64,000 nt of DNA from Thermodesulfobacteriota bacterium (GTDB lineage: Bacteria > Desulfobacterota > WTBG01 > CAIYCZ01 > CAIRTM01). Location of the stretch: NCBI GenBank assembly GCA_028278025.1, contig JANQFE010000096.1:10711-74710 (forward strand), in the 5' to 3' direction. Each line of letters begins with the position of its first letter. Position 1 is the first letter of the stretch. The notes beneath the pieces are model-generated. The model was given only the letters and a program-made list of their open reading frames with translations. It did not search any database and was not told the origin of the DNA. A program made the position numbers and the translations under genes. This document shows, piece after piece, positions 15,619-47,640 of this stretch.

Positions 15619-15660
15619 TGCTTTTGTCTCAACCTTTAAAGCATCATGTAATAAACAAAA

Positions 15661-17778
15661 TTAATTAGATTCAACAACTCTCAGGCCTGGTACAATATTT
15701 TTTTTACTGCTAAGAATAGTCGCATACGAGTGATCCGGCATTGTTTGTACAGTCTTCAGCAATCCTATATGCTCCTTGTCATATGCAAGAGAAAGGTCAG
15801 ATTCGGCTAAGGAGTCATTTGTTGGAAGGATTGAGAAATCAGTACCCACTTGAACGCCACTGTCTGCACCGATGTTTAGCAGGACTTTTTCATTTTGCAA
15901 ACGGATGATTTTACCTTTAACTGGATAGAGGGACCTTGCTTCTTTTATAAGGGAGTTTGATAAATTATTAACAATAACCTTGGCGGCCCTGTTATCCAAC
16001 TCCTCATGCAATGCAATAATAATTTTAGAAGTGTCAGTTTCAAAAACACGTAAATTGACAGTAGTCAGATTTTTCAGCTTTACAATTTTTCCAACACCAA
16101 TGAGCCTGGCACCCATAAGCTTGCCGAGCATGGCAAGTGCCAAGGACTGATCGGCAATATCTGAGGTGCTGATCTGCAATTCTTTCAGCAGGGCGTTGAT
16201 TTTTTCACGCTCTACGAGTTGAACCCTGCCTGTGTTTATGAGTTCTCTGGAAAGGCTTGTGGTAAAGTATTGTTCAAGATTCTCACTGTCTTTAATGTTG
16301 CCAACACAGCTAAATCCAAGTATTGACATCGTCAAAGGGCTTGATGTCCATGAATCTACAGGATGTGATGAGCCCTTTATTTTTTTTTGTTTTTCATATT
16401 TTTCAGTAAGAGCTTTTAGAATAACTCGAATATTATCAGTAGAAGGTTTTACGGACTTAACGGCAGTTATAGAAGTTTTGTCAGTATGTTTTTGTTTAAG
16501 AAAAGGAAGTTTATCATGAGAGAGAAAAAGCAGAATAAATATTGCAGTTAAAAAAATGATGACAGAAGAAATTGTAAAGTTAAAGGTTTTGCGGTCAAGA
16601 GGAAGTGATCTTGTTGATCCTGTTGCAAGGGCCTCTTTATGCGTAGACATTTCTTCATAGGGCAGTTTTTTGTCTGCAGAAGAAAACTGGTTGTCATCAA
16701 GATAATTGAAAGATGGATGGCCATACAGAACATAGCTTGCCCAGATAATATTGCTCTCACCGTAAATGGAAATAAGATGCTCGCGAGACTTTTTTACAGC
16801 CTCTCCAATACAACAACCTTGGATAAGTTTTTGATAAAAACAAACAGAAAATTCACGGCTTGCATCATCCAGGACTTCCCAGAAGGTGCCGATGTAATGC
16901 AGTACTCCTGACACTAGAAATGAATGCGCAAGGCCGAAGATGTTAGTTTCAAAATCTTCATTAAGTTTCCATTCAAGTGTCTGGCCTGACTGGCAGGCAT
17001 TGGCAAAGATAAGATTAGGGAAAGGCCTGTTGCGCGACATGTGCATGATATCATGTGAAGTGAATTTACCGTTTTCCAGCAGCCAGCCGCTTTGTGAAGG
17101 ATCAGCAGCAACATAATCAGCATGGCCTGCATAGTGAATAATATCATAGTTGCGTATGTAGTCCCTTAATGTGGAGTTGTTGACTCTTCGATTAAAAAGA
17201 TCTGCGTGTATTAGTGCGGGGCTTTTATCCAGTTCAGATCTAATAAGGCTACCTTCAATGTAAGCATTTTCAAGATCGCCACTGGGGTCACACAAAATTA
17301 GAATTTTTAAGGGCGACGAGATCTTTTTGGGTTTTGGCTTGACGATGTTTTGATGGGTGCGCACAACCCTGCCTACATTAAATTTCCTGCAAAGGAAATC
17401 GCTGCCGTCATACAAAAGTTCCCAGGGAATATGGACCAGTCCGTCATCAATATTAATGATAAGGTTTTCAGAAGCAGTTTTGGAAAGCTCTTTTTGAACA
17501 TTGTGGGGCAATAAATCTTCAAAAAGCGAGAAACCGGTATTCTTTAATTGAGCAAGATTTTCTCCGGCAAGTGCGCCTCTCAGATTAGCATTGTTAAGCA
17601 GTCGGGTAAATTCTTTGCATTTATTAGTTATAAGATATGGATCAATGGTTTGCTCTGAAATATGTCTTAGCGTATCCTCTTCTATGTTTGTCTTAGTAAA
17701 GATACCAACCTTCAGACGGGTATGCTCTCGTGATAATTCAATTTCAATTGTTTTTTGCTGGTGGTCGTGTGTGCTCAT
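15661..17778 (-). CDS. CHAT-domain (caspase-like, clan CD) peptidase fused through a TM helix to a C-terminal CsgG-like domain
   Basis: ATG at 17778. 'HYAGHADYV' and 'FANACQSGQ' are the His/Cys dyad motifs of CHAT/caspase-HetF. TM helix 'VIIFLTAIFILLFLS'. C-terminus 'VQLVEREKINALLKELQ...LAMLGKLMGARLIGVGKI' (CsgG-like). Confidence 0.7.
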   Translation of the reverse strand: MSTHDHQQKTIEIELSREHTRLKVGIFTKTNIEEDTLRHISEQTIDPYLITNKCKEFTRLLNNANLRGALAGENLAQLKNTGFSLFEDLLPHNVQKELSKTASENLIINIDDGLVHIPWELLYDGSDFLCRKFNVGRVVRTHQNIVKPKPKKISSPLKILILCDPSGDLENAYIEGSLIRSELDKSPALIHADLFNRRVNNSTLRDYIRNYDIIHYAGHADYVAADPSQSGWLLENGKFTSHDIMHMSRNRPFPNLIFANACQSGQTLEWKLNEDFETNIFGLAHSFLVSGVLHYIGTFWEVLDDASREFSVCFYQKLIQGCCIGEAVKKSREHLISIYGESNIIWASYVLYGHPSFNYLDDNQFSSADKKLPYEEMSTHKEALATGSTRSLPLDRKTFNFTISSVIIFLTAIFILLFLSHDKLPFLKQKHTDKTSITAVKSVKPSTDNIRVILKALTEKYEKQKKIKGSSHPVDSWTSSPLTMSILGFSCVGNIKDSENLEQYFTTSLSRELINTGRVQLVEREKINALLKELQISTSDIADQSLALAMLGKLMGARLIGVGKIVKLKNLTTVNLRVFETDTSKIIIALHEELDNRAAKVIVNNLSNSLIKEARSLYPVKGKIIRLQNEKVLLNIGADSGVQVGTDFSILPTNDSLAESDLSLAYDKEHIGLLKTVQTMPDHSYATILSSKKNIVPGLRVVESN

Positions 17779-17835
17779 TATATACTGTTTCTTAATAAAG
17801 TTGTCTGATTAGTTTATGCAGCTAATGCAGAGATG

Positions 17836-18705
17836 CTATTGAATCAGAAATTGAACTCTTTTGATTTCCCTGCGGTTTCTGGATAATACTATATGATAAG
17901 TTCCAGGAGATATATCCTTAAACAGCGCCTTACCATCTTCTAGGAAGAGCGACACTATTTCGAGGGTATCATGAAACAAAGAAACTCTGATATTATCAAG
18001 AGAAGAGCGTAGGCCTGATGTTGAGAGAAAAACCAACACTTCAAATTTTTGTTTCTCAAGTTCTTCTATTTCAATTTTCAGCTCAATTCCCCCGGACCTG
18101 TCCATGATAATGGATATGTTTTCCTGGAGTTTTCTTTTACCCTTTCGAACCATTATAAGCTGCGGTTCAGATTGAGGAATAAAAAGTTCGGCAACAAAAT
18201 CCCTGCATTTTTGGAGAATGGATTTAGTAAGGTGTATCATTTGTGTGCTTAATGAAGTGTCAGTGCTTTTGCTAAGAGGATATTCCCGTGAGACTGCTTT
18301 AAGAAAACTATGCAGCCCATCTACTGGTTCCTTATGAAAAGTCATTTTTTGCATATCCTGCTCAAGATCAAGAAGCTGTGAGAAATATCTGTTACAGTCA
18401 GTACAACTATTAAGGTGTTGTTTAATTTCTTTTAGGCCCTTATCAGATAGCATTTCTCTCTGGTTAGCATACGCGACAAGAAGATCAGGGTCAATACAAC
18501 TGGAATCTGCATATTTTTCTGCAAGAACTGTCCTGTGTGTTGATAATGCGGCATCAATTTCACGCAGTTTTATAATCTCATGTCTGCATGCGGAGCACCC
18601 ATCAATATGTGCTGCAAGCGTTTTCATATCATTGCCGTTTAACTGCTTTTCAAGATAAAGCAGTAATTTGTCATTGAGCTCAGGTTTATCACATTGTGCT
18701 TTCAC
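17836..18705 (-). CDS. Anti-sigma factor, zinc-finger (ZAS, HxxxCxxC) type
   Basis: GTG start at 18705 overlaps the sigma stop (GTGA). 'HIDGCSACRHE'. Second Cys pair 'CTDC'. Position is immediately downstream of the ECF sigma gene. Confidence 0.65.
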   Translation of the reverse strand: MKAQCDKPELNDKLLLYLEKQLNGNDMKTLAAHIDGCSACRHEIIKLREIDAALSTHRTVLAEKYADSSCIDPDLLVAYANQREMLSDKGLKEIKQHLNSCTDCNRYFSQLLDLEQDMQKMTFHKEPVDGLHSFLKAVSREYPLSKSTDTSLSTQMIHLTKSILQKCRDFVAELFIPQSEPQLIMVRKGKRKLQENISIIMDRSGGIELKIEIEELEKQKFEVLVFLSTSGLRSSLDNIRVSLFHDTLEIVSLFLEDGKALFKDISPGTYHIVLSRNRREIKRVQFLIQ

Positions 18706-19304
18706 AAAAGATCTCCCTTGTTTTGTTCACAAAGGTTTCTCAACTCCAACAAACAGCGTTTCAGTCGTGACGCCACAGTGCCCATAGGAATATTAAGGGT
18801 AGATACAATTTTGTCATATGAAAAGTTATCAAAATATTTTAGTTTTATGATCTCACGGCACTTTGTTCCTATATTATCAAGAGCTGATGTCAGCAGCTCA
18901 CGTGTCTCGGTGCATTCAAGATGGTCATAAAAAGAAGAGTGCGTGTCTTCCAGTACCAAGCGGGGGGAGCCATCTTCATCTGCAGCATCAATTGACAAAC
19001 AGTTTTTTTCCCCCTCACGTTTTTGGGCTGTGATTTTTCTGATTTCTGAAACACATTTGTTTTTAGCGATATTTGAAGCAAAGGTTTCAAGAGAACAGTC
19101 AAATTTGAACGATTTTAATGAAGTGACAAGACCGGTAAATACTTCCTGTATTATTTCCTCTGCATCCTCAAAGTCAAAATTCCATTTTTTCCAATGGGCA
19201 ACGAACCGGATAGTATTATAGGTTCGTTTATAGAGGATGGACCAGGCTTCTTCGCTGCCGGTCAGGCATTGCGTAACAAGTTCTTTATCATCCTGCACTG
19301 CCAA
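18702..19304 (-). CDS. ECF-family RNA polymerase sigma-70 factor
   Basis: Sigma-70 region 2 ('EAWSILYKRTYNTIRFVAHW...EDAEEIIQEVF') and region 4 ('YFDNFSYDKIVSTLNIPMGTVASRLKRCLLELR'). The ORF track starts at 19460. A GAGGAGG SD 8 nt upstream of TTG 19304 gives an ECF-typical length of about 200 aa. Confidence 0.85.
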   Translation of the reverse strand: MAVQDDKELVTQCLTGSEEAWSILYKRTYNTIRFVAHWKKWNFDFEDAEEIIQEVFTGLVTSLKSFKFDCSLETFASNIAKNKCVSEIRKITAQKREGEKNCLSIDAADEDGSPRLVLEDTHSSFYDHLECTETRELLTSALDNIGTKCREIIKLKYFDNFSYDKIVSTLNIPMGTVASRLKRCLLELRNLCEQNKGDLL

Positions 19305-19876
19305 GAATGTTTCCTCCTCAAAGATATATATAACCAGATAACAAAAAGCTTTTGTATCTATAGATAAACATAAGCAATGCCTTTTCTCTGGAAGGTAGAT
19401 ACAGTAAACTGTAATATGATTGTGGTTTTGACGTCTGTTTGCTCTAATATTTTTTCTCATTTTTACATAAATTGCAATAAATAAACAGGATTAGAATTAT
19501 TTTTATTATAATCTATAATTAATTAGCTATTGTTAAAATTTTATTTCCCTTTTGGTGCAATGCTTAAAAGACATAATTAGAATACAATGAAAAATGGAGT
19601 TTCTCTAATATCTATTGTCGCAATCTGAAATAATTTGTTTCTAAAAAATGATTTATTTATTCAATCAACATAACAATCATTTTTCGCTCAGTTGATGCTG
19701 TTGGAAACAAGACCACATTTAATGCAGATGATTTCAAATGAAATGAGAAGTTTTATCAAGTGAGGTTTTTTCCTCAGGTGATAGCGAAGAACTAAAATTT
19801 TATTTAAAATATGATGGTTTAGAAAATTTTGCATAATGTTCACCTTTAGTGTTGGGTTGTTACTATTCAATGAATT

Positions 19877-28497: not shown

Positions 28498-28604
28498 TTA
28501 GTATGTTCATTAATAATAAGTCTATAATAACTATGCCGCAAAACATTACAACAATTTTTTAGTACGTACAACTATTACACATTGATATTTTATTTTTTCG
28601 TATA

Positions 28605-28721
28605 CGTTGGCCCCCTTTGGTTTGATTGCTGCGGGCTATATGCTCGCTGAAAAAAGCTTAAAGCTTTCATCACGGCCCGTGTTCACACCGCCCTTACGGC
28701 TCAAGCCAAGGGGGGCCAACG
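28605..28721. repeat. About 117-nt GC-rich palindromic element (copy 1); long imperfect hairpin with arms cgttggccccctttggtttga / tcaagccaaggggggccaacg
   Basis: Read directly. It shares a core (ggttt(t)gattgctgcgggcta..tgctcgctg ... caccgccctt..gctcaa) with copy 2. Confidence 0.5.
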
Positions 28722-28888
28722 TATGAAACACAATTTTAATTTGAGGATTACTCAAATTAAAATGTGACGCTGTAGACAGGCTGTATTGATAGTGCATTGC
28801 AAAACACAACATAACAAGCATTGTGAAAAAAGATAATTGTGCTAGAGTACTTATACAGTGCAAGATAGAATAACAAAGGAGCATATTC

Positions 28889-29683
28889 ATGATTATTGAT
28901 ATTCACAATCACGTGACTGTCAAGCACAGTCCTTTTCATTTATCAGCCGAAGAATACATTAAAGCAATGGATGACGCGGGCGTAGATAAGATTGTTATTC
29001 TTGGTAAGGATTATGGGATGCTGGGAGACAGACAGAACAATAACCTTCCTGATGAAGATGTAACTGATTTTATTGAGCAGTATCCTGACCGCTTTATTGG
29101 ATTTACAGCGGCCCATCCAGACAGGGAAATTTCACAGAATGTAGAGCGCATTGAGCGGGCTGTGCATGACCTTGGTTTTAAGGGAATAAAACTTAACCCT
29201 GCTGCCGGGTTTTATCCTAATGATGAACGGCTTTATCCTGTTTATGAAAAAGCATCAGAGCTGGGGATACCGGTTGTGATTCATATGGGTGTAAAGCCGC
29301 CGGCAGAGGGGTGCCGCCTAAAGTTTTGTAATCCGCTGTCGCTTGATGATATAACCGTTGATTTTTCCGACCTTAAGCTGGTTGTGGCCCATGCAGGCTA
29401 TCCCTGGGTAGAGGAGACAATCATGGTCGGGCTGTATGCCGAAAATGTGTTTGTTGATATTTCCACCCTTAATCAGATAGAAGAAACTCTCGGGTATGAT
29501 GTGGTTTTACCGACACTTCGCAAACTAACCAGTTCACTGGGAAGCAGAAGGGTAGTATTCGGCTCGGATGGTATTTTTAATTTTGAACCGCTTATTGATA
29601 GTGTTAAAAATGCGGATTTTCTTTCAGAAAGTGATAAGGAAAGAATCTTGTGGCAGAATGCAAAAGAAATTTTGGGATTGTAA
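28889..29683 (+). CDS. Amidohydrolase-2 family (TIM-barrel metal-dependent hydrolase)
   Basis: 'MIIDIHNHV', the metal-binding HxH N-terminus. Length 264 aa. AGGAG SD. Confidence 0.75.
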   Translation: MIIDIHNHVTVKHSPFHLSAEEYIKAMDDAGVDKIVILGKDYGMLGDRQNNNLPDEDVTDFIEQYPDRFIGFTAAHPDREISQNVERIERAVHDLGFKGIKLNPAAGFYPNDERLYPVYEKASELGIPVVIHMGVKPPAEGCRLKFCNPLSLDDITVDFSDLKLVVAHAGYPWVEETIMVGLYAENVFVDISTLNQIEETLGYDVVLPTLRKLTSSLGSRRVVFGSDGIFNFEPLIDSVKNADFLSESDKERILWQNAKEILGL

Positions 29684-29747: not shown

Positions 29748-29860
29748 GTGAAGGTCTTTGGTTTTGATTGCTGCGGGCTACGTGCTCGCTGGAATGACCG
29801 TCTTTATAGTATAGGCAATTGCTCGCACCGCCCTTGCTGCTCAAAACCAAAGACCTTCAC
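29748..29860. repeat. About 113-nt GC-rich palindromic element (copy 2), in direct orientation with copy 1, so the pair flanks the amidohydrolase gene
   Basis: Arms gtgaaggtctttggttttga / tcaaaaccaaagaccttcac. Shared internal core with copy 1. Confidence 0.5.
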
Positions 29861-29913
29861 TAAAGTATACCAACAGATTTAAGTGTCACGTTGTAGTAGT
29901 ATGTAAAAGAATG

Positions 29914-30555
29914 CTATCGCCAGCCGCGCCAGCCTCCTCCCCCGAAACCACCTCCTCTAAAAGGCCCGGAGCCGCTGCGGATAGGACCGTTTCCAAAGGA
30001 ACGCCCTGAACGATGACCCCATTGCCCTCGTCGGTCGTCACGCCTGTCCTGGCGATTGTCCCTGACATTTTCAATACGCTGCTGGCGTTGTTGCTTGCGT
30101 TCATCATAAAAATCTATAATTGCTTCAGCTTTTTTTTCACGGGCTTCCTTGCGCTTTTTGAGAAAATCAGCTAAATGCTCATCAATACCATCATCTTCAG
30201 TATCTTCAAAATAATCCTCCCAGTCATCATAATACCAGTAATAAGGATCATACCAGTAAGGATAATAGCCGTAGTAATAGGGGTAATGGTATGGATAATA
30301 GGGGTAATACCCCATGTAGAACGGATCATACCAATAAGGATAATAGTGCCGGGGATATTCAGTATAGCGATCCGGGCCGGCAGAATAAGGAACCGGTTGA
30401 GAAGCATTATCTGAATCATCTGATGCATCCAGGTAAGATATACTGTTTTCATTCAACACAGCTTGCGGGGATGATGATATTTCATTTTTTTGAGCAATGG
30501 TGGCACAGCTCAGTACAATAAACACTATAGATGTGATAATAGATATTTTTGTCAT
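29914..30555 (-). CDS. Secreted low-complexity protein with a Tyr/Pro/Trp-rich core (YYPYWYDPFYMGYYPYYPYHYPYYYGYYPYWYDPYYWYY), an acidic segment, a Lys/Glu/Arg/Gln-rich helix and an RG/GGF-rich tail
   Basis: ATG at 30555. Signal peptide MTKISIITSIVFIVLSCATIAQ. Composition read directly. ORFs on the opposite strand here are mirror artifacts. Confidence 0.5.
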   Translation of the reverse strand: MTKISIITSIVFIVLSCATIAQKNEISSSPQAVLNENSISYLDASDDSDNASQPVPYSAGPDRYTEYPRHYYPYWYDPFYMGYYPYYPYHYPYYYGYYPYWYDPYYWYYDDWEDYFEDTEDDGIDEHLADFLKKRKEAREKKAEAIIDFYDERKQQRQQRIENVRDNRQDRRDDRRGQWGHRSGRSFGNGPIRSGSGPFRGGGFGGGGWRGWR

Positions 30556-30689
30556 GCTGCAAAATAATATGGTTTTTCTTTACACATTTAATTATATCAT
30601 AAAAACAGTTTTCAATCATTATTCCATCTGATAGTATATAAACATTATATATGTGGATTAAAAAAAATTTAATGTGCAGGAGTTGCCGA

Positions 30690-31667
30690 GTGAAACATGA
30701 AAAGGAATTACACATAGCGCTTGATGCAGTTAAAAAGGCATCAAATCTTTGCAGCAGTGTTCAAAACAGGCTGGTGGACATTCAGGCAGTTGAAAAACAG
30801 GACAGGTCACCTGTAACTGTTGCCGATCTGGGCAGTCAGGCGGTTATCGTCAGCATGCTTCTTGATGTATTCCCCAAAGATTCAATTGTTGGTGAAGAGG
30901 AGGCCGATATTTTGCGCAGTAATGCTGATCTGCGACGGCAGGTGGTTGAGCTTGTTAATGAACAAATACCGGGTACAACCGAACAGCAGGTGCTGGAGTC
31001 AATCGATTTTGGTGCACGGCAGACCGATTTTACACAAAGATACTGGACCGTAGACCCGATTGATGGAACAAAAGGTTTTTTACGCGGTGAACAGTATGCC
31101 ATAGCTCTGGCACTTGTGGAAAAGGGACAGGTGGTTTTGGGTGTCCTCGGCTGCCCGAATTTTATGATTGAAACAAATGATGACTCTGGCAGCAAAGGCT
31201 GCATATTTTTTGCAGTTAAAGGGCAGGGGGCTTTTGTGCAGCCATTAGGGAGTTCTGAAAAAACAAATGTTTCAGTAGACAGGATTGTAAATGCTGCCGG
31301 GGCTGTTTTTTGTGAATCTGTTGAGAAAGCCCATGCCTCCCATGAAGATCATGCCCGGATTTCAGCCCATCTGGGCATTACCGCCGTGCCATACCGCATC
31401 GACAGCCAGGCAAAATATGCTGCGGTAGCATGCGGGAAGGCTTCAATATATCTGCGGCTGCCCCGCAGCAAGGAGTACCGGGAAAAAATCTGGGATCATG
31501 CTGCCGGATGTATCATTATAAGTGAAGCCGGTGGTAAGGTAACTGATTTCAGTGGTAAAACTCTGGATTTTTCGGCAGGTAAGAAACTTATAAAAAACGA
31601 AGGTATTCTAGCAACTAATGGTCATTTACATCAGAAAGCACTTGATGCAATTGCACATGTTCTATAG
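30690..31667 (+). CDS. cysQ: 3'(2'),5'-bisphosphate nucleotidase / inositol-monophosphatase family (CysQ/HAL2-like)
   Basis: 'WTVDPIDGTKGFLRGEQYAIALAL' (IMPase DPIDGT motif). The ORF track starts at 30651. An AGGAG SD 7 nt before GTG 30690 is the preferred start. Confidence 0.75.
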   Translation: MKHEKELHIALDAVKKASNLCSSVQNRLVDIQAVEKQDRSPVTVADLGSQAVIVSMLLDVFPKDSIVGEEEADILRSNADLRRQVVELVNEQIPGTTEQQVLESIDFGARQTDFTQRYWTVDPIDGTKGFLRGEQYAIALALVEKGQVVLGVLGCPNFMIETNDDSGSKGCIFFAVKGQGAFVQPLGSSEKTNVSVDRIVNAAGAVFCESVEKAHASHEDHARISAHLGITAVPYRIDSQAKYAAVACGKASIYLRLPRSKEYREKIWDHAAGCIIISEAGGKVTDFSGKTLDFSAGKKLIKNEGILATNGHLHQKALDAIAHVL

Positions 31668-31766
31668 AAAGCTTTAAAAGCGCCACAAATGCAAACTAAA
31701 AAAGACTCCTCACTATTACAGATGAGGAGTCTTTTTGTAAACTGGTAAGGAATATACGTTACGTTA

Positions 31767-33245
31767 TTATCTTGAATCTGCTGTCAGCTTTTCTATTACA
31801 GGCAGTACTGTTTCCAGTATGGTCTTTGCAATAGAGGTAACTGCCGGGTATGTATCCATTAAATCGACAATTGCAGCTGACTGGGCATAATAGAGTTTTA
31901 TAAGAGCTTTGCCGGTCTTGTTTTGTGCAAGGACTCTGTCTCGGAATTGCCGCAGCGTTTCAAGACAGGGATCCGCCTCACCAAGCAGCTCGATGGCCGG
32001 ACATGGGAGAAGAGGCGCTACCGTTACCTGCTGCGATGCAGTGTTCGTGAGCGCTTCAGGGTCCTTAACTTGCAGTATAATGGTATATGTACCGGGCTCT
32101 GCATAGGTAGTGGTTGCCGTTTTAGTTGGGCTGTATTGAGTATCCCAGGTACCGTCATTTTCCCAGTCCCAGCGCACTTCAAGAGAATCCGAGCTATCCT
32201 CTGCATCAGTGGAGGCCGAGGCATCAACGCTGAATTCAGTACGGGTGTTACCTGATATAGGATCAACAGAAAATAAAGCGGTTGGGGCAGTATTGGTAGG
32301 CACGGAAGTTGTTGTAGTTGTTGTTTCCGAGACCGGGGAGAAGTAACGCAGTATGATACCATCATTGCCAACGGCATAGGCTTCATTTGAAGGGCTTACC
32401 CAAAGGCCCTGGAGAAGTTTTGAAACACCGCTTTCCATCTTCATCCAGGTGTTTGACCGATAGTTATAAATAATACCGTCTTCACCCGCAGTAAAGATAT
32501 TAGGAGCGGTGGTGCCTTCAATATCCCAAAAATCTTTTTTGGTACCGGCACTCTGCTTAGTCCATGTTTCACCGTTATAGATAAGTAGTGTGCCGTTTTT
32601 GCCGACAGCAAAAACATTTGTTGCAGACGTACCCCAAATGCTGTAAAGATCATCCTCGACAAAACTTTCCTGTACGGTCCAATCACTGCCGTCAAAGTGC
32701 AGAATAACGCCCTTTTCACCAACGGTAAAGATATCATCGGCAGCGCTGCCCCAAATGTCCAAAAGAGTGTCGCTTACAGGACTCAGCATGCTTGAGCAGG
32801 AGGATTCATTACACTGCTTGATTATACCCTTTTCCCCGACAAAAAACATTTCAGAGAAAGAAGTGCCCCATATCCCGTAAAGGTTAACTGAAGTGTCACT
32901 GGGCACCGGCTGCCAGGCAGATTCATTTTTTTTCAAGATGGTGCCGTCATTGCCAGCAATAAATATGCTGTCATTAGCAGGACCCCAAATTCGATTGAGC
33001 GTATTGGCAGTACCACTGTCTAATTCTTTCCAGGTTGTGCCGTTGTCAAAAAGAAGCGTACCGGCAAAGCCTACCGCATAGATGCTGGTATCTGAGGTCC
33101 CCCATACATCTTTCAGTACCTCCTTTGTCGGACTTTTCATACCTGTCCACTCCTGGGCGTAAAGGCCACCGGCAGTAAAGAGTAAAATAAATGTGATCAT
33201 TAAAAAAAAAAGTGATTTTTTCATACGGTACCTCCAATTTTGCAT
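31767..33245 (-). CDS. Secreted 7-bladed beta-propeller protein with PKD domain and the conserved C-terminal domain (CTD-C)
   Basis: Signal peptide. Seven repeats of 'IWG(T/S)S...(F/Y)AVG..G.IL....(S/E)W'. PKD 'FSVDASASTDAEDSSDSLEVRWDWENDGTWD'. C-terminus 'CPAIELLGEADPCLETLRQFRDRVLAQNKTGKALIKLYY'. Confidence 0.75.
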   Translation of the reverse strand: MQNWRYRMKKSLFFLMITFILLFTAGGLYAQEWTGMKSPTKEVLKDVWGTSDTSIYAVGFAGTLLFDNGTTWKELDSGTANTLNRIWGPANDSIFIAGNDGTILKKNESAWQPVPSDTSVNLYGIWGTSFSEMFFVGEKGIIKQCNESSCSSMLSPVSDTLLDIWGSAADDIFTVGEKGVILHFDGSDWTVQESFVEDDLYSIWGTSATNVFAVGKNGTLLIYNGETWTKQSAGTKKDFWDIEGTTAPNIFTAGEDGIIYNYRSNTWMKMESGVSKLLQGLWVSPSNEAYAVGNDGIILRYFSPVSETTTTTTSVPTNTAPTALFSVDPISGNTRTEFSVDASASTDAEDSSDSLEVRWDWENDGTWDTQYSPTKTATTTYAEPGTYTIILQVKDPEALTNTASQQVTVAPLLPCPAIELLGEADPCLETLRQFRDRVLAQNKTGKALIKLYYAQSAAIVDLMDTYPAVTSIAKTILETVLPVIEKLTADSR

Positions 33246-33424
33246 AAATTATAATCATCTACTTTTGGTTTATGTTGTTCAAAAACCTGGATAAGATAAT
33301 TAAGGTTATCATTTCAATATCGGTTTTTTTACAGATATCCCAAGCAAATATTGAACATGCCTATAACAAAAACCAGTCTTTTGTAAGGAGATTTATAAAA
33401 GATATTTAACCGGCAGCAGCACTA

Positions 33425-34561
33425 TTACTGATTTTTGCTCTGCAGAAGCCAGCTGAAAATTGTTACAAGGAAAAACAGGGATGCTGAGACAGTCATGGGA
33501 TAGAAAAGGTATTGAATAGAGGAAACCTCAAGGACCCATCCGGTTATTAAGGGGCCTATGACAGAGCCTAACCCATAAAAAAAGGTGAAAGAAGCATTAG
33601 CAACACCGATCTTATGGGCAGGTACAAGCTCCCCAATCAGAGACAATGCAACCGGATACAAAGCACCTGCAATCAGGCCAATACAACAGGTGAGTAGACA
33701 TATTATCCAGTAATTTTGGAAAAAATTAAAAGACAGGGTAGACAGAACAAGCACTGCTCCACAGCACGACAGTACAGGGCGTTTGCCCCATCGGTCAGCA
33801 ACCAGTCCGGCAGGGTAAGGTGAAACTGCACCGCCTATTGCAAAGAAGGTAAAAACAATACCAAGATATTTTCCGGAGATAGACATGTTGTCCAGGTACA
33901 GAGACAGAAATGAGGCGATAGAAACCTCTACAAAAGCATAGCACAGGGCTGCTGTCAGCGGGATCAACAGTATACCCAGTAAATTTAAAAAACCGAATTC
34001 GGTCTTTTTAACCGGAACTTTTGTCTCTGCAAATCCGATGAATAACACCACACTAGCAATAAAACAGCAAACAGCGCCCAAGATAAAGGGCCCGGCCGTG
34101 TTGACGGCATAAAGACTTGTACCAACTACCGGTCCAAAGGCAAAACCGACAGCAAATACGAGACCATACAGACCCAGATTAGCACCTCTTTTTTCGGGCG
34201 GTGAGATAATGTTGATCGCAGCTTCGGTCGGAGCAAAGATAAATGCTGAACCGATACCCTGAATAATACGAATCAGGTAAAAAAGCTTCGGCCCGGGCAT
34301 GTAGGGCATCAAAAAAATTGCCAAACTAAAGATTGTTAATCCCGCAAGAATAATCTTTTTCGACCCAATGCGATCAATCCAGCGGCCCAACAAAAGTGTT
34401 GTAATGGTGAAAGAAAGAAAATAGGTAGTCTGTATTTGTCCGATTGATGCCGTTGAAGCACCTATGCTTTTAAGGAGCAGGGGCACCAGGGGTGAAACAA
34501 AACTCATTCCAAAAGCAAGAAAAAAAACAGTCAAAAGGATTGAAAAAAGGGCTGCATTCAT
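33425..34561 (-). CDS. MFS transporter
   Basis: 12 hydrophobic segments. 'LLLGRWIDRIGSKKI' MFS motif-A-like loop. Confidence 0.8.
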   Translation of the reverse strand: MNAALFSILLTVFFLAFGMSFVSPLVPLLLKSIGASTASIGQIQTTYFLSFTITTLLLGRWIDRIGSKKIILAGLTIFSLAIFLMPYMPGPKLFYLIRIIQGIGSAFIFAPTEAAINIISPPEKRGANLGLYGLVFAVGFAFGPVVGTSLYAVNTAGPFILGAVCCFIASVVLFIGFAETKVPVKKTEFGFLNLLGILLIPLTAALCYAFVEVSIASFLSLYLDNMSISGKYLGIVFTFFAIGGAVSPYPAGLVADRWGKRPVLSCCGAVLVLSTLSFNFFQNYWIICLLTCCIGLIAGALYPVALSLIGELVPAHKIGVANASFTFFYGLGSVIGPLITGWVLEVSSIQYLFYPMTVSASLFFLVTIFSWLLQSKNQ

Positions 34562-34803
34562 GAATGTATTGCAAAAAGTTTACTATAGTAATAAATCTCT
34601 CAGGCGTATGACGGAATTTTTCAGTTCTCTAAGAGTCATATAATTTGGATTGCCGGCGTAAAGGAGTATTGAGAATTGTTTTTATGAAATACTCCGGTGT
34701 GAATAGTAAATCCAGATTATATAAGTATTAACTGGGAACTTATCAGGTAACAGCGTATTTTACGAAAAATTTGCTTTTTTTATGAAAATACATTGAGTAT
34801 AGT

Positions 34804-36798
34804 GTGGTACACAAAAATCAGTTTGATATTTTCTATCATAACAGTACCTACTATGACAACCGTGTTATGAAAAAAAAGCACAATTTTTTATTAAACAAAA
34901 CAGAAGAAAAAGAACCCCAAAGTTCTATGCGAATTGCGGCAATCAGCAGCATTCTGATAATTTTAATTATATATCTTATTAGTATGTGTCCGACGATCTA
35001 TTCGGGAGATGCACCGGAGCTTGCTACGGCAGGCGCCACTTTCGGCATTCCTCATCCTCCCGGTTATCCGCTGTATGTGCTGTGTGCAAATATTTTTTCA
35101 GGGCTTATGCCGTTTGGGAACCCGGCTTGGGAAATTAATCTTATGTCAGTGATTGCAGCGACCGGCGCTGTGGCCGGTGTGTTCGGCATAGCTCTGCTTT
35201 TGTATGAATCATGGGTACCGGCTGTTTTTGCAGCCCTTGGACTTGGTGTCGGTGCAACAATGTGGTCACAGGCACTGATTTCCGAGGTTTATGCATTTGA
35301 CCTGCTGCTGGCTGCGGCTACACTCTATAGTGCACTCAAGGCACGGCAGAAGCAGACCTTAACCAGTTGTGCCCTTACCGTTTTTCTGGCGGCAAGCTGG
35401 ACCGGTCATAGAACGGTCAATATACTGTATATTTTATCGGTTCTAATACTGCTTGGGCCTGTACTGCAAAAAACAGTATGTAGCGTTAAAGGCTGTCTTA
35501 TCATCGCTTTGGCATGTATAGCACCGTTTCTTGTTTTTTTGTATCTTCCGCTGGCCTCATCCTACAATCCGATGCTCGATACCGGTGATCCGGAAACTTG
35601 GCAACGTTTTTGGGATATGGTTACTGCTTCAGTTTATAAACAGTATCTTTTTGGTGGTGGTATAAATACATTTTTTATTCAGCTCATATACATTTTTTCA
35701 TCTTTGCCCAAAGAACTGGGCGCGGCCATAATACTTGCACCGGTTGGTGCTGTTTTTTTATGGCTGCAGAAAAAAACCGAAGCAGTAGCTTTGCTTTATC
35801 TGGCAGGTGCAAACTTGTTTTTTGCAGCAAATTATCAGGTGCTTGATGTAATGGTGTTTACCCTGCCGTCGCTGCTGGCACTGCATGTACTGTCAGGGGC
35901 CGCGATTAGGGGCATGTTTGGAAAGCTGCCTAAAATGTATACGATAACTATAATTATAGGGCTCGTTATTGCAACAGCCGTATATACAAGTGCAGAGAAC
36001 AACTTGCGTGAGCAAACCCTTTGCCGTGATTTTGCCCGCGATGCATTAAACTGTGCTGAAGACAATGCCCTTATCTTAAGTAATGTTGACAGTGTTACCT
36101 TTGCACTTTGGTATATGCAGTATGCAGAATCATACAGAGAAGATATCCTGGTTGTTTCAAAGGGCCGATCAGTTGACTGGTATCAAGAGCAGACAAAGAA
36201 GCAGAGACCGGATTTAATCATACAGAAATATCAGGGAGCTGATGCTGCAAGCAGATGGCCGGCCATGCTGGCCGAAAACAATGCCGGTACTGTACTGGTC
36301 TACCTTACAGCAAATATGAAGGGCTATTTTTTGCCTATTGACATGATGAGATTAAACAATGTAGTGACCGAGGTGCCTTCAGGGATATTGATGCAGATTG
36401 TGCCGCGTGATGCTGTGCCTTCACCAGAAAAGGTTATTGTGCGTAATGAAACCTTATGGGATCAGTTGTGGCCTCACGCAGTCAAGGCACGCACGCAGAA
36501 CCTGGCAACCGATATGACGGCCCTGCTTTTGCATTATGCAAGTATGCGAGTACTGTTTGCACGGTATTGTTTGTGGCATGGACATGCCGGGGCTGCAAAA
36601 AATGCTTCGCAGGATGTTATTGAACTTGATACTGATGAGTTGATTACAAAGGTCAATAAAACCTTTCAACGCAAAGGCTTCAGGTACCATATGTCCGATA
36701 TGTCTCAGCAGGCTGTTATGCTCAATCGCCTTGCATTGTTGTTGCAGCAAGAAAAACTTGACCTCATACAGATAAGAAGAAAGCTGGCAGGAGCGTAA
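34804..36798 (+). CDS. Polytopic membrane protein, DUF2723/TMEM260-like putative GT-C glycosyltransferase; the true start is probably downstream (M at about 34867 or 34927)
   Basis: N-terminal TM-rich region 'CPTIYSGDAPELATAGATFGIPHPPGYPLY' followed by a large soluble C-terminal domain. Confidence 0.5.
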   Translation: MVHKNQFDIFYHNSTYYDNRVMKKKHNFLLNKTEEKEPQSSMRIAAISSILIILIIYLISMCPTIYSGDAPELATAGATFGIPHPPGYPLYVLCANIFSGLMPFGNPAWEINLMSVIAATGAVAGVFGIALLLYESWVPAVFAALGLGVGATMWSQALISEVYAFDLLLAAATLYSALKARQKQTLTSCALTVFLAASWTGHRTVNILYILSVLILLGPVLQKTVCSVKGCLIIALACIAPFLVFLYLPLASSYNPMLDTGDPETWQRFWDMVTASVYKQYLFGGGINTFFIQLIYIFSSLPKELGAAIILAPVGAVFLWLQKKTEAVALLYLAGANLFFAANYQVLDVMVFTLPSLLALHVLSGAAIRGMFGKLPKMYTITIIIGLVIATAVYTSAENNLREQTLCRDFARDALNCAEDNALILSNVDSVTFALWYMQYAESYREDILVVSKGRSVDWYQEQTKKQRPDLIIQKYQGADAASRWPAMLAENNAGTVLVYLTANMKGYFLPIDMMRLNNVVTEVPSGILMQIVPRDAVPSPEKVIVRNETLWDQLWPHAVKARTQNLATDMTALLLHYASMRVLFARYCLWHGHAGAAKNASQDVIELDTDELITKVNKTFQRKGFRYHMSDMSQQAVMLNRLALLLQQEKLDLIQIRRKLAGA

Positions 36799-36828
36799 TG
36801 TGTTTTACATACATAACCGTCCAGGAAA

Positions 36829-37491
36829 ATGAAGATATTAGCAATCAACGGTAGTCCGCGCCGCAAAGGAAATACAACAATCCTGCTGCACGAGCTCTTA
36901 CAGGAAGCTCAAAAGGCAGGTGCCCTGACCGAAGAAATTTATGCAGAAGAACTTAACTTAAAATACTGCCGCGGCTGCCTGCGATGTAACCTGATCAAAC
37001 GCTGTGCAATACGGGGAGATGACTGGAACAGAGTAAGCGAAAATATTAGGCAGGCTGATGCCTTAATTTTTGCGACACCAGTGTACTTCCGTCATGTGAC
37101 GGCGTCTTTAAAAAAAGTATTGGACCGGTTTCGATCTTTTGTACATGTGCAGATAACATCAGATGGTTTGCAGCATACCCCCTGGCAACAATGGGAAAAA
37201 AAATTTATACTGATTACATGTATGGGTTCTCCCGATCCCGGCGAAGCAAAGCCTGTTGTTGATCTGTTCAGTTTTATTGCATCTATACTCGGCCCTGATA
37301 ATTCAATAGAATCGGTTATCGGCACTCGTTTAGCTGTTCCTGAACAGGTAACCATGACTAAAGCACGGCTCAGTAAACTCTACCATAAACTGAACATCTC
37401 TGGTGAGCTGGTTGAAACGGATTATGCACGGAACCGGATGATACTTACTACGTGTCGTGCAATCGGCAGGAATTTGGTACTTGGGAAATAG
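36829..37491 (+). CDS. Iron-sulfur flavoprotein (Isf) / NADPH-dependent FMN reductase-like
   Basis: 'MKILAINGSPRRKGNT' flavodoxin-like N-terminus. Compact Cys motif 'CRGCLRCNLIKRC' (C-x2-C-x2-C-x5-C). Confidence 0.75.
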   Translation: MKILAINGSPRRKGNTTILLHELLQEAQKAGALTEEIYAEELNLKYCRGCLRCNLIKRCAIRGDDWNRVSENIRQADALIFATPVYFRHVTASLKKVLDRFRSFVHVQITSDGLQHTPWQQWEKKFILITCMGSPDPGEAKPVVDLFSFIASILGPDNSIESVIGTRLAVPEQVTMTKARLSKLYHKLNISGELVETDYARNRMILTTCRAIGRNLVLGK

Positions 37492-37717
37492 TTGATAAGA
37501 TAAATTTCTAAACCTATCGCCACTGGAGGTGGCTCCTGAAATCCCTGCACTCGGCTGCGTTGCAATGGGATCAGAAGCCCCCTTCAGGTGGGGATCATTA
37601 CTTAAATCTATACAGTAATTTAAATTCTATGATTTAGAATTGCTGCACTTGGTAACGGGCAACCCCGAAGCGTAGTTTATCCCGAATCCATGCGGGAAAA
37701 AGTAACCAGCAAAGAAT

Positions 37718-39666: not shown

Positions 39667-41097
39667 TTATTCCGTTACCGTAACTGTTAGTGATGCAATA
39701 TCAGAAAGTTCGTTTTGGTAGTCACCTACCTGAACGCGGGCGGTATATTCACCCGGAACAAAATAAACATACTGGTATTGACTTAAAAATAAACATTCTG
39801 CTGGAAAACCGTCACCCATATCCCAGCAATAGAATTGGATGCCAGTGCCATCAGGATCATGAGCAGTACAGGTGAAAGTAAATATAGTTTGCAAGGCCAC
39901 ACCACTAGTCGGTTCGACAGTGAAAGAATCAATGATTGGAGCTCCGGAACCGGATGAAACAGACGTAGTTGTGGTTGGATCACCTGATATAGATGTGCTG
40001 GTAGTTGTATCCGCACCGGGTACGGTAGTGGTTGTGTTTGTTCCGTCGGGAACGGTAGTAGTTGCGGGGGGTGTCTCTCCGGTTTCGATATAGGTAATGG
40101 CCCGCTCAAGCACATAGTCATGGGTGTCGTCAAAGCTTTGCTCAGAGGATATCCCAATATCAGGAGGAACGCCGTTATCCTCTATCACTTTGTCATAATA
40201 GGTATAGGCCATCCAGCTGGAAATTGCATAGCTTACCCTGTTGGGCAGTTCATAGGTCTGGGGAAAGCCTGAGGCTCCGCGGGTTCGTTCACCGATAAGG
40301 GCAATGTTCGGATTGCGCTTCATCATCAGCGTGAACCATTCAGCCGAGCTCATGCAGCGTTTTCCGATCAGTCCTACAACCGGTCCACTGAAATGAGTAC
40401 CGGCATTGGGGTCCAGGGCATGAGACACGGGTGGGTCAAAATCGTCGTGGTTGGGACCGTTGCGGGTTGTTGTATAGCCGTACTCGTACGATTCATCAGT
40501 TAAACGGGAACAAAACAGCGCAGCATTTTCTTCATTTCCGCCGTTGTTCGCGCGGATATCGATAATCATGCCGTCGGCATTTGCATACTTCTGAAAAATC
40601 TCATCAATGGCATTATCGGTTATTGACCGAAAAGCACTGTCTTCCAGCGTAACGATATCAATGTAGGCAATATTATTGCCGACAATACCGTGCGTTATTG
40701 TTCCGTTGGCAAGGTCTGTTGCATCGGTTATATACTGACTTGTTACCGACCAATCGGGTCGATTAACGTTGTAGGAACCATCGTAGCCGTACACATTGCC
40801 TGTGGGCGATGCAACCGACACATGCCAGTCATGCAGTACCTGCAGCATTTCATTGAGCTGCTGGGCGAACTGCTCAGCATCCATTTCCTCCTGAAAGTTG
40901 GGTGCATACTGTTGCTTGACCGCGTTCCAGTCAACATTCTTATAGGTAAAGTACGAGTAATGCTGATCAAAATCGCTCCAGGCCTGCTCAAAGAGTTCAG
41001 AGGTGGGGGTTCCAATGATGCAGCCTCTTTGGCCGCAGATAAACGGTATACATGCCAAAAGCAGAAGCAACTGAAAGAATCTTATAAGATAGTTCAT
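39667..41097 (-). CDS. Secreted S41-family peptidase (tail-specific/C-terminal-processing protease-like) with Thr-rich linker and C-terminal PKD-like domain
   Basis: 'IIDIRANNGGNEENAA' and 'GKRCMSSAEWF' are S41-like motifs. 'TTTVPDGTNTTTTVPGADTTTS' linker. C-terminal PKD-like module shared with the 41203..42543 protein. Confidence 0.75.
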   Translation of the reverse strand: MNYLIRFFQLLLLLACIPFICGQRGCIIGTPTSELFEQAWSDFDQHYSYFTYKNVDWNAVKQQYAPNFQEEMDAEQFAQQLNEMLQVLHDWHVSVASPTGNVYGYDGSYNVNRPDWSVTSQYITDATDLANGTITHGIVGNNIAYIDIVTLEDSAFRSITDNAIDEIFQKYANADGMIIDIRANNGGNEENAALFCSRLTDESYEYGYTTTRNGPNHDDFDPPVSHALDPNAGTHFSGPVVGLIGKRCMSSAEWFTLMMKRNPNIALIGERTRGASGFPQTYELPNRVSYAISSWMAYTYYDKVIEDNGVPPDIGISSEQSFDDTHDYVLERAITYIETGETPPATTTVPDGTNTTTTVPGADTTTSTSISGDPTTTTSVSSGSGAPIIDSFTVEPTSGVALQTIFTFTCTAHDPDGTGIQFYCWDMGDGFPAECLFLSQYQYVYFVPGEYTARVQVGDYQNELSDIASLTVTVTE

Positions 41098-41202
41098 AAC
41101 AGTACTCCATAAAAAAACAGCAATTATTTACTTAATATAATACTTTGTTTTATATTGGATAAAAATATGCTAAAAACATATAATGCTATAATTATGAATT
41201 TT

Positions 41203-42543
41203 TTACTCCTCGGTAACTTCAAAAGATGCGGATGCTATAGTATAATTATCCTGGTCGTCCCATACAGACACATAAGCTGTAAAGGTTCCAGCAATATAGG
41301 CAGTAGCTGAAAAAGTGCTGCTGAGTGTTGTTGCATCCCATTCCCAGAATTGCTCGACAGAACCGCCGCTGCTGCCGTCAAAATCCCACCAGTACGCAAC
41401 AATTGAACCGTCCGGATCATGTGCCTCACACGTAAAGGTAAAAAATGTTTCATAAATCTGTCCGGAGGTAGGACTGATGGTAAAGGAATCAATGACAGGT
41501 GCCCCAGAGTTAGAATCAACAGTCGTTGTTGTTGTCGCAGTGCCGGGTACTGAAGAAGATGTAGTTGTATCACCACCCGGGGAAGGCGTATTTTCAAGCA
41601 ATCCGGGTCGGTATGCCAGGATGTTTGCCTGAATACGTTCAGCCTGACCGGGAGTGAATTCTGTTAAACAGGGATCAGAGGAATAATCCATATAGTTATG
41701 AATCGGGTCTTTGCCGGGGCGTAGCGGACAGGAATTGCGGGAATCAGGACAGCCGCTTGTAGAGGTACGCTGGGCCGGTGTATCATCTACATAATCCCCA
41801 TTGCCGTAACAAAAACGAGGGGCCTCGAAAGTATGGTAGAGACCCAGCCAATGACCGGTTTCATGGACGGCAGTATCGCCTTCATTGTAATCTTCAAAGT
41901 CGCCGCCGGGAAGGGAAGAGTATGTAACAACCACACCATCAACCGCAGGGGCAGACTCCAGATCCCATGGAAATTTGGCGTATCCGAGTTTGTTTTCTTC
42001 AAGAACGGCTGAGTAAAGATTTAAATAATAGTGAGGATCCAGGTTTAGGGCCGCTTTTGCTTCAACCTCTGAAGTTTCTTTTTCCATTTTAAACCACTCA
42101 GGATCATCAGTATAGTCTACTTGTACCAGCAGGAATTGTACACCCATTGACCGGTATGCTTGGTTCATAACATTTAATTGTGCATCAATATCTTCCTGTG
42201 TAAGGAGACCCTCCTGACCGTTATGCATAACATGAAAAGCAACCGGTATAGTCAGTCCAGAAGCTGGAAAGTCCTGGATCATGCCGCGTCTCTTGTTATA
42301 ATCAGGATCATCTGGATCAGGTAAAAGTGGTGAAATAGTTTCCTGTAGAAGCCGTGCTTCTTCAGGAGTAACATCACGAGTTGAGCACCGTATTATAGAA
42401 GATGGGGGTTCATTTTCACCATCAAGATAAGTTTCGGATGCAAATACTCCTGTTTTTCCTGAAAGAACATAACTGCTTGGAGAATAAACTAGAATTACAC
42501 TAAGAAATATAATTGCATACACATATAATCGTCTGCTTTTCAC
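41203..42543 (-). CDS. Secreted M43 (pappalysin/cytophagalysin-like) zinc metallopeptidase with Thr-rich linker and C-terminal PKD-like domain
   Basis: 'VHETGHWLGLYHTF' (HExxHxxGxxH). Signal peptide. C-terminal module paralogous to the S41 protein's. Confidence 0.8.
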   Translation of the reverse strand: MKSRRLYVYAIIFLSVILVYSPSSYVLSGKTGVFASETYLDGENEPPSSIIRCSTRDVTPEEARLLQETISPLLPDPDDPDYNKRRGMIQDFPASGLTIPVAFHVMHNGQEGLLTQEDIDAQLNVMNQAYRSMGVQFLLVQVDYTDDPEWFKMEKETSEVEAKAALNLDPHYYLNLYSAVLEENKLGYAKFPWDLESAPAVDGVVVTYSSLPGGDFEDYNEGDTAVHETGHWLGLYHTFEAPRFCYGNGDYVDDTPAQRTSTSGCPDSRNSCPLRPGKDPIHNYMDYSSDPCLTEFTPGQAERIQANILAYRPGLLENTPSPGGDTTTSSSVPGTATTTTTVDSNSGAPVIDSFTISPTSGQIYETFFTFTCEAHDPDGSIVAYWWDFDGSSGGSVEQFWEWDATTLSSTFSATAYIAGTFTAYVSVWDDQDNYTIASASFEVTEE

Positions 42544-42574
42544 ATAACCCCCCTTCTACAGTGAATATTAATAA

Positions 42575-43492
42575 TCACAACTCGCTATCGTCAAGCAAGC
42601 CCGGGCGATACATCAGGGTCATGGCCTGCATACGCTCATTCTGGCCAGGCGTAAACTCGTACAGGCAGGTATCATAGGAATAATCCATGTAATTGTGAAT
42701 TGGATCGAGCCCCGGCCGCAGGGGACAGGAATTGCGGGAATTCGGACAGCCGCTGGTAGAAGACCGCTGGGCCGGGGTATCAGCTACGTAATCCCCGTTT
42801 CCCGAGCAGAGCCTTTGACGCTGGAATGTATGGTAGAGACCAAGCCAATGTCCAACTTCATGCACTGCAGTATCACCCTCATTAAAGTTTTCGGTTTCTC
42901 CTCCCGGGATTGAAGAATAAAGCATTACCACTCCGTCCACTTCGGGATTTGTTGCCAGATCCGACGGAAATTTGGCATACCCGAGCAGGCTGTCTTCCAG
43001 TCCGGCTGAATACAGGTTTAAATAATTGAAAGGATCAAGGTTAAGGGCCGATTTTGCCTCTAACTCAATCTCACCTCTTTCCATGGTAAACCATACAGGA
43101 TCGTCAGTAAAATCAACCTGTGCCAGCGAGAACTGAAAACCGGTACCCTGGTAGGCCTCATTCATAACACTGATCTGGGCATCAATATCTTCCTGGGTAA
43201 GCAGCCCGTCATCACCATTGTGCATCACGTGAAAAGCTACCGGGATGACTATTCCTTCTGCTGGAAAATCCTGGATCATACTGTTCTGATTCTTGGAGCC
43301 CGGGGCATCCCGATCAGGTAACAGAGGAGCAATTATTTCCTGAATCCGTTGGGCTTCTGCAGGCGCTACATCACGTGTTCCACAACGAATGACTGTGGTA
43401 CTTTCCCCAAAGGATGGAGTTGTGTTTATGGCAAAAACCGGTAAAAAAACAGCGATTGCACTAAATAACCTACCTACATTTTTCATGCTCAA
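42575..43492 (-). CDS. Secreted M43 zinc metallopeptidase (tandem paralog, lacks C-terminal extension)
   Basis: 'VHEVGHWLGLYHTF'. Collinear with 41203..42543 over the catalytic domain. Confidence 0.8.
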   Translation of the reverse strand: MSMKNVGRLFSAIAVFLPVFAINTTPSFGESTTVIRCGTRDVAPAEAQRIQEIIAPLLPDRDAPGSKNQNSMIQDFPAEGIVIPVAFHVMHNGDDGLLTQEDIDAQISVMNEAYQGTGFQFSLAQVDFTDDPVWFTMERGEIELEAKSALNLDPFNYLNLYSAGLEDSLLGYAKFPSDLATNPEVDGVVMLYSSIPGGETENFNEGDTAVHEVGHWLGLYHTFQRQRLCSGNGDYVADTPAQRSSTSGCPNSRNSCPLRPGLDPIHNYMDYSYDTCLYEFTPGQNERMQAMTLMYRPGLLDDSEL

Positions 43493-43543
43493 TCCTCCAA
43501 CAAAAATTGTACTATTAATGATTTTACATTACAATAATATACT

Positions 43544-45754: not shown

Positions 45755-45777
45755 GATTGTTTTACGGTCATGAGTGG

Positions 45778-47637: not shown

Positions 47638-47640
47638 TAA

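Follow-up and report, generated by a model that had tools for sequence, protein, structure and literature searches.

The open reading frame (ORF) at 29914..30555 on the reverse strand of a 64,000-nucleotide stretch of DNA from a Thermodesulfobacteriota bacterium (the whole stretch is referred to here as the window) is a real, selectively maintained gene, and we consider it near certain that its product is a lipid-anchored lipoprotein of the cell envelope. That the ORF is genuine follows from five independent grounds: it has homologues, it is under purifying selection, it shares the codon usage of its host, it was recovered in a separate assembly, and its position is conserved. The gene and the modules of its product are arranged as follows (positions in the window; aa, amino acids):

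29914..30555 (-), complete gene: 213 codons plus stop, monocistronic, ATG start, stop codon at 29914-29916.
30505..30555 (-), predicted lipoprotein signal peptide, aa 1-16 (MTKISIITSIVFIVLS), and lipobox Cys17: lipobox pattern, invariant Cys.
30370..30504 (-), acidic linker rich in Ser, Asn and Asp, aa 18-62: predicted disordered, with a net charge of -6.
30229..30369 (-), Tyr/Pro/Trp block, aa 63-109: imperfect YYPYWYDP(F/Y)Y units, net charge -1, predicted disordered.
30178..30228 (-), acidic patch, aa 110-126 (DDWEDYFEDTEDDGIDE): net charge -11, family consensus YYDDFEDYLED.
29998..30177 (-), predicted amphipathic helix rich in Arg/Lys/Glu/Asp/Gln, aa 127-186: AlphaFold2 helix 124-186, net charge +7.
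29917..29997 (-), basic Gly-rich tail, aa 187-213 (FGNGPIRSGSGPFRGGGFGGGGWRGWR): net charge +4, family-wide aromatic-Arg-Gly/Asn motif, basic C-terminus.

Translation of the minus strand over the full interval gives exactly the 213-residue sequence quoted in an earlier annotation of this DNA made without database searches (the sequence-only reading), which had preferred a gene to an artefact of periodic DNA and had proposed to look for related ORFs elsewhere and to compare codon usage with the neighbours, naming a frame interrupted on re-sequencing as a refutation. On all three points the results speak for a gene. Homologous ORFs do exist: a phmmer search of 1.84 billion cluster representatives returned 11 proteins with E-values from 5e-13 to 8e-4, the module order being the same in ten, and a profile search added two more members; with so few representatives, we agree with the sequence-only reading that the protein type is uncommon. 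The orthologues P0005 and P0012, both 251 aa long, are 77% identical and free of indels, with a ratio of nonsynonymous to synonymous substitution rates (dN/dS) of 0.35 overall and of 0.25 in the helix, the most constrained module. Codon usage is host-like, with TAT:TAC at 19:9 compared with 0.67:0.33 in 26 other ORFs of the window, with GAT and GAA favored as elsewhere, and with a GC content at third codon positions of 0.38, similar to that of the neighbours. The frame is intact in a Logan assembly contig (7.7 kb, run SRR20820740) that is identical to window positions 29831-37564 and on which the gene caller gave the same 213-aa product.

A spurious ORF born of low-complexity periodic DNA could be suspected because the repeat DNA is also open in other frames, where ORFs of 79 and 93 aa overlap this one, and because no clear Shine-Dalgarno sequence or promoter was found for it (a promoter and terminator scan gave counts not above those in shuffled sequence). 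The overlapping ORFs are by-products of the repeat, and the suspicion is refuted by the homologous family with its common module order, by the dN/dS value without indels, by codon usage and synteny, and by the invariant lipobox Cys, which leaves it an almost negligible probability. At the DNA level, the aromatic block contains two 31-nucleotide copies that lie 78 nucleotides apart and are 87% identical, and Tandem Repeats Finder reported just a weak 18-nucleotide array; since the units are imperfect, the copies have diverged to this extent and the array is weak, we regard the block as repetitive coding sequence and not as a simple-sequence tract. No paralogue of the ORF was found within the window.

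The lipoprotein assignment rests on the N-terminus, which consists of MTK, the hydrophobic segment ISIITSIVFIV and L-S-C17, with ITSIVFIVLSC as the lipobox segment. The sequence-only reading had seen a clean secretory signal peptide here; presence of the signal and export of the protein stand, but its type is that of a lipoprotein ending at Cys17. A lipobox pattern in the style of PROSITE PS51257 matches the query and seven relatives, while the boxes of the remaining members are near-canonical (LSGC, FAGC) or odd (LPAC, LPVC, LPFC, MNGC). The Cys directly after the hydrophobic segment is invariant among the aligned members (11/11 in one alignment, 13/13 in another), and Cys17 is the predicted acylated first residue of a mature protein of 197 residues. 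In E. coli, the residue at position +2 decides on sorting, and lipoproteins without Asp at +2 go to the outer membrane. As Asp occupies this position in no family member, the E. coli rule suggests anchoring in the outer membrane.

Composition and predicted structure of the mature protein

The low-complexity Tyr/Pro/Trp core described in the sequence-only reading stands out in the window. Of the 57 residues from aa 63 to 119, 25 are Tyr, 4 Trp, 2 Phe and 8 Pro. When the 78 stop-to-stop ORFs with a length of 100 aa or more were compared over all six frames, no other ORF exceeded 9 Tyr within 57 residues; Tyr accounts for 4.0% of residues in the background of 26 other ORFs. The Gly/Arg tail (RSGRSFGNGPIRSGSGPFRGGGFGGGGWRGWR) is likewise present as described, and so is the charged helix in between, for which AlphaFold2 (run on the query with the family alignment) predicts residues 124-186 with a predicted local distance difference test score (pLDDT) of up to 95. 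The same model starts with a signal-peptide helix and is disordered both over residues 28-109 and in the tail. The family member P0004 is predicted to have this layout too; pLDDT stays below 50 over linker and Tyr block in both proteins, and the helix of P0004 spans residues 125-228 in three segments (125-135, 138-209 and 211-228; pLDDT up to 98). Hydrophobic residues of the helix recur with a periodicity peak at 3.6-3.67 residues instead of 3.5, and the identity autocorrelation of the family shows lags of 18, 11 and 22 residues. For 12 of the 13 members, spectral power is higher at 3.6-3.67 than at 3.5 (13.1 versus 2.5 for P0004). The helix is thus described as amphipathic with a straight hydrophobic stripe, and not as a heptad coiled coil.

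Relative to the background, the mature protein prefers Arg over Lys (R/(R+K) 0.73 versus 0.43) and Tyr over Phe (Y/(Y+F) 0.80 versus 0.46), and it is poor in aliphatic residues (8% versus 25%). Charge is segregated, the N-terminal half being acidic and the C-terminal half basic and Arg-biased; this order of acidic before basic is seen throughout the family, as is the preference for Arg. In most members (e.g. the query, P0001, P0004, P0009 and P0013) an aromatic-Arg/Lys-Gly/Asn motif is followed by a basic C-terminus, and the last residue is basic in all 13 (Arg in 10, Lys in 2, His in 1). The sole conserved motif of the linker is D-N-A-S at aa 49-52 (positions 30400-30411). Within this otherwise unalignable disordered region, D-N-[AIL]-[ST] occurs in 8 of 13 members, with sites in P0002-P0006, P0008 and P0009 besides the query, while the equivalent site in P0012 reads DNAI. 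The D-N-x-S/T motif might serve as a sequon for N-glycosylation or as some other short linear motif; among the annotated ORFs of the window, none encodes an oligosaccharyltransferase with an STT3/PglB domain.

Distribution of the family and a similar design in Bacteroidota

Taken together, the members form a small, fast-evolving lipoprotein family that has so far been found only in metagenome genomes of the Thermodesulfobacteriota (sulfate-reducer) type; the one titled metagenome-assembled genome (MAG) with a family member is labelled delta proteobacterium / Thermodesulfobacteriota. Searches of genome and metagenome contigs with the family alignment A2 gave pattern matches, none of which was confirmed by tblastn, and added no members; low-complexity masking together with fast divergence may account for the lack of confirmation. 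The query has no match in Pfam and a single sub-threshold one in NCBIfam (TIGR04260, discussed below), and literature searches for a described Tyr-rich bacterial lipoprotein yielded nothing relevant. The family is rare and has neither a curated model nor a characterised member. The analysis thereby defines a protein family that Pfam and NCBIfam do not have, one in which the modules follow a clear order, the lipidation site is conserved and two short motifs recur. In kind, its members belong with bacterial lipoproteins that have an extracytoplasmic low-complexity region.

A second family member, the 277-aa P0004 mentioned above, was observed on a Logan contig (L007, SRR20820740_258151) from the run that also gave the contigs of the window itself; next to its gene lies a convergent ORF of 475 aa without Pfam match. 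Two origins are conceivable for P0004, a paralogue at another place in this genome or the orthologue in a co-occurring relative.

The analysis also points to a much larger, equally unannotated family of analogous design in Bacteroidota. This P0010 family (P0010, P0015-P0133) comprises at least 259 lipoproteins of 350-520 aa, all annotated as "hypothetical" and without Pfam match. Its members resemble the query in the lipobox Cys, a Tyr/Pro-rich block with YYDPFY-like units, a long polar, basic and disordered C-terminal region and a terminal RR, but have an extra conserved N-terminal domain (DDLYYSP...YDPxFYNVVVMGDQVWVEPRY) and a Ser/Thr/Arg tail in place of the helix. The phmmer link between the query and P0010 (E 4e-4) is confined to the low-complexity block, and hhalign of alignments A1 and A5 (the latter of the P0010 family) aligned 26 columns, in the signal peptide only. 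As profile-profile alignment was limited to the signal peptide, the resemblance would reflect either convergence, i.e. analogy, or homology beyond detection.

How the lipoprotein may act

The sequence-only reading had proposed a self-assembling, adhesive or phase-separating protein, and we infer that this fits the composition, because Tyr is preferred over Phe and Arg over Lys, charges are segregated into blocks and much of the chain is predicted to be disordered. According to the mechanism we favor, acyl chains at the N-terminus would hold the mature protein on the membrane after cleavage at Cys17. The protein probably lacks a folded active site and would most likely act as a multivalent "sticker" scaffold, in which Tyr and Trp rings of the aromatic block contact Arg guanidinium groups in the helix and tail of other molecules (cation-pi), while the acidic N-terminal half pairs with the basic C-terminal half of neighbouring molecules. 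The membrane surface would in this way be covered by a self-associating layer, gel-like or adhesive in nature, and the same tail could also bind anionic polymers of the envelope. We regard this reading as a whole, a membrane-anchored sticky scaffold or adhesive working through Tyr-Arg and acid-base contacts, as tentative and somewhat short of an even chance, and the assembly mechanism taken alone as a possibility of about one third. Purifying selection acts on composition and length more than on sequence, and what is conserved is composition and charge patterning, as expected for a sticker function.

Tyr-Arg cation-pi contacts drive phase separation of FUS (PMC5927716). Like FUS-type prion-like/RGG proteins, the query combines Tyr-rich disordered with Arg/Gly-rich segments, prefers Tyr over Phe and Arg over Lys, and conserves composition rather than sequence. 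The likeness is one of composition and not of sequence homology: unlike FUS, the query is bacterial, exported and lipid-anchored, lacks an RNA-binding domain, and has an about fourfold higher density of aromatic residues, interspersed with Pro and Asp and not with Ser, Gly and Gln. Precedents for disorder outside the bacterial cytoplasm are the extracytoplasmic condensate reported for CsgF (bioRxiv 10.1101/2022.10.20.513119) and the disordered regions of RsgI and PBP1 of B. subtilis (PMC9732909), although sequence, composition and organism are unrelated to those considered here. The query also shares features with adhesives of the type of mussel foot proteins-3 and -5, being secreted, small, disordered and very Tyr-rich with Gly, Arg and Trp. 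The mussel proteins need oxidation of Tyr to 3,4-dihydroxyphenylalanine (DOPA). They differ from the query in that no tyrosinase is among the annotated ORFs of the window, in that the host is a likely anaerobe, and in the lack of homology.

Several observations weigh against the sticker scaffold. Known phase-separating domains have a far lower density of aromatic residues than the block (~54%), and a density this high might lead to aggregation or membrane insertion instead. Numbers of aromatic and basic residues show no significant correlation across members (Spearman 0.30, p 0.32), the Gly-rich tail is found in some members only, and the helix periodicity is equally compatible with a helix lying on a lipid surface. 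Among the neighbours, moreover, there is no conserved partner gene that would point to a pathway. If the mechanism were true, it would represent a compact, genetically simple, membrane-tethered low-complexity scaffold outside the bacterial cytoplasm and a natural Tyr-based adhesive without oxidative DOPA chemistry, of relevance to the envelopes of uncultured sediment anaerobes and to biomaterials. The broader proposition, that envelope lipoproteins of anaerobic sulfate-reducer-type bacteria use a eukaryote-like Tyr/Arg sticker grammar to build a membrane-tethered extracytoplasmic condensate, gel or adhesive, with the Tyr-rich lipoproteins of Bacteroidota as a convergent second case, strikes us as rather unlikely at present.

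The compatibility of the helix with a lipid surface leads to an alternative in which the lipoprotein acts on the membrane itself, in the manner of apolipoproteins or late embryogenesis abundant (LEA) proteins: the hydrophobic stripe of the helix and the Tyr/Trp block would lie in the membrane interface and stabilise, bridge or shape the envelope membrane under stress. The periodicity peak, the 18/11/22-residue self-repeats present in most members, the strong constraint on the helix and the lipid anchor are all in line with such a role, and exchangeable apolipoproteins and other 11-mer repeat proteins (PF01442) share with the query family both the 3.6-3.67 periodicity and repeats of 11, 18 and 22 residues. 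Database echoes of this kind are weak, though. With all members searched against Pfam, Apolipoprotein A1/A4/E (PF01442) reached a best E of 0.016 in 2 of 11 and YtxH scored at chance level, and a profile search of PDB sequences gave non-significant amphipathic-helix matches only (ApoA-I at E 0.24-0.97, SHERP and an uncharacterised repeat protein). All of these are far below significance, the hydrophobic face is narrow, the query's own periodicity is weak (~5 compared with 10-13 in relatives), and the helix is far more Arg/Asp-rich than those of apolipoproteins, in which the Tyr block and the lipid anchor have no counterpart. As this model also leaves the conserved acidic patch and the extreme Tyr content unexplained, we consider it unlikely, and the same holds for its corollary that Arg residues of the tail bind phosphates of lipid or lipopolysaccharide.

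The overall layout, an N-terminal lipid anchor followed by a linker, a long helix and a basic C-terminus, would also suit an envelope tether or spacer of the Lpp/TolA type, with the protein anchored in one membrane, the helix as a rod of ~9 nm and the basic tail bound non-covalently to peptidoglycan or another anionic layer. Braun's lipoprotein Lpp is a small lipoprotein dominated by one long helix and ending in a basic C-terminus, features that the query shares. A PG_binding_1 gene adjoins the family gene in one lineage, and a YkuD L,D-transpeptidase gene lies nearby in locus L006, but the window, L005, L088 and L002 have no peptidoglycan-related genes beside the family gene. The query further departs from Lpp in its ~110 residues of disordered low-complexity sequence, in a periodicity that is not heptad and in the lack of a conserved C-terminal Lys, the last residue being Arg or His in 11 of the 13 members and Lys in 2, which makes a covalent linkage in the style of Lpp unlikely. 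We judge a tether or spacer role to be quite unlikely.

Dense acidic patches beside Tyr, in a family whose MAGs are labelled delta proteobacterium / Thermodesulfobacteriota, might also suggest a surface protein that binds minerals or metals (e.g. Fe or FeS) through clustered Asp/Glu and Tyr. With composition as its only basis, and with neither His/Cys metal motifs in the protein nor metal-handling genes in the neighbourhood, such a function is improbable. A precursor of a radical-SAM-modified cyclophane peptide of the GrrA/OscA1 family, i.e. a ribosomally synthesized and post-translationally modified peptide, is effectively refuted: the TIGR04260 match (aa 141-212, E 0.0011) and the aromatic-X-Asn/Gly motifs of the tail would speak for it, but its 19.5 bits lie below the curated cutoff of 31, the model matches 1 of 11 family members, the gene lists of L002, L005, L006 and L088 contain no Radical_SAM gene, nor do the ORFs annotated between 3 and 52 kb of the window, and the match, confined to the Gly/Arg-rich tail and the helix, looks compositional.

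Genomic neighbourhood and a dispersed hairpin element

The lipoprotein gene is divergent from an Inositol_P gene (30651-31667, plus strand), which is CysQ-like, and convergent with an Amidohydro_2 gene (28889-29683, plus strand). On the Inositol_P side lie, in addition, genes for a secreted BNR-like propeller/PKD protein, a major facilitator superfamily transporter, a TMEM260-like GT-C glycosyltransferase and an FMN reductase, and the other side carries the amidohydrolase, a UPF0047 gene and hydantoinase A/B genes. The order of BNR-propeller/PKD gene, family gene and convergent Amidohydro_2 gene is common to the window and loci L005 and L088. In a second lineage, a 79-aa gene precedes the family gene and the PG_binding_1 gene follows it, and the neighbourhood of P0007 is wholly different. 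The best matches of the BNR/PKD neighbour are labelled delta proteobacterium / Thermodesulfobacteriota. A functional link to this upstream protein was considered and rejected, as neither a hidden Markov model search nor a Tyr-composition screen found a family member within 10 kb at any of 80 genome loci (79 contigs) with BNR/PKD homologues. In view of these loci and of P0007, the common gene order is explained by inherited position in close relatives and not by an operon-like link. Sulfation of tyrosines was suggested by the acidic EDY context and the neighbouring CysQ-like gene; the window has no sulfotransferase, however, and at the syntenic loci L005 and L088 there is no Inositol_P gene.

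The sequence-only reading had described the gene as flanked by a palindromic repeat element. This holds for the 3' side, where a copy lies 54 nucleotides from the stop codon, but not for the 5' side, where there is none. The two copies in the window, which bracket the amidohydrolase gene, are:

29748-29860 (+), hairpin repeat copy B: 54 nucleotides 3' of the stop, between the two convergent genes and not part of the lipoprotein gene.
28602-28724 (+), the other hairpin repeat copy: 1.2 kb from the gene.

Copy B may act as a terminator. The element is a dispersed hairpin repeat of ~115-125 nucleotides with a conserved inner core (TTGATTGCTGCGGGCTAYRTGCTCGCTG ... CACCGCCCTTGCTGCTCAA) and outer stems that differ between copies, each being self-complementary. 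Compared with shuffled sequence, the folds of both window copies are much more stable (z = -9.6 and -7.8). The exact core was found in seven more stretches of Joint Genome Institute (JGI) metagenome contigs in unrelated contexts, five of them full copies (L093, L095-L098) and two truncated (L092, L094), and compensatory changes affect 14 of 37 stem pairs across the seven full copies. A search of Rfam with the element gave nothing at gathering thresholds, with chance-level microRNA matches only below them. Two Logan contigs of run SRR20820740, L091 (at 29831) and L001 (at 28620/29773), end inside the element on both sides of the amidohydrolase gene, which implies that more copies of the core are present elsewhere in the same genome or sample.

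Further afield in the window, positions 12143-19460 (minus strand) hold genes for an extracytoplasmic function (ECF) sigma factor, a zf-HC2 anti-sigma factor, a CHAT-domain protein, a TPR/Glucodextran_B/CsgG-like protein and a FadL/TodX-type outer-membrane channel, with large PKD/Ig and Sortilin-Vps10 (BNR) proteins encoded downstream of this cluster. The ORFs listed at 9277-12348 and 12143-13495 overlap by ~200 nucleotides, and one of the two starts is probably wrong. Positions 39667-47256 (minus strand) contain a run of predicted secreted peptidases, namely an S41 peptidase with a PKD domain, two M43 peptidases and an M6-like one, and within this interval lies an unannotated 736-aa ORF (43544-45754) without Pfam match. 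A non-coding gap of 1.1 kb (47257-48400) holds several inverted repeats and, at 48066-48102, a segment of 35-37 nucleotides that is 86-89% identical to the sequence directly following the hairpin in L095 and L098, a likeness that suggests a second dispersed repeat module.

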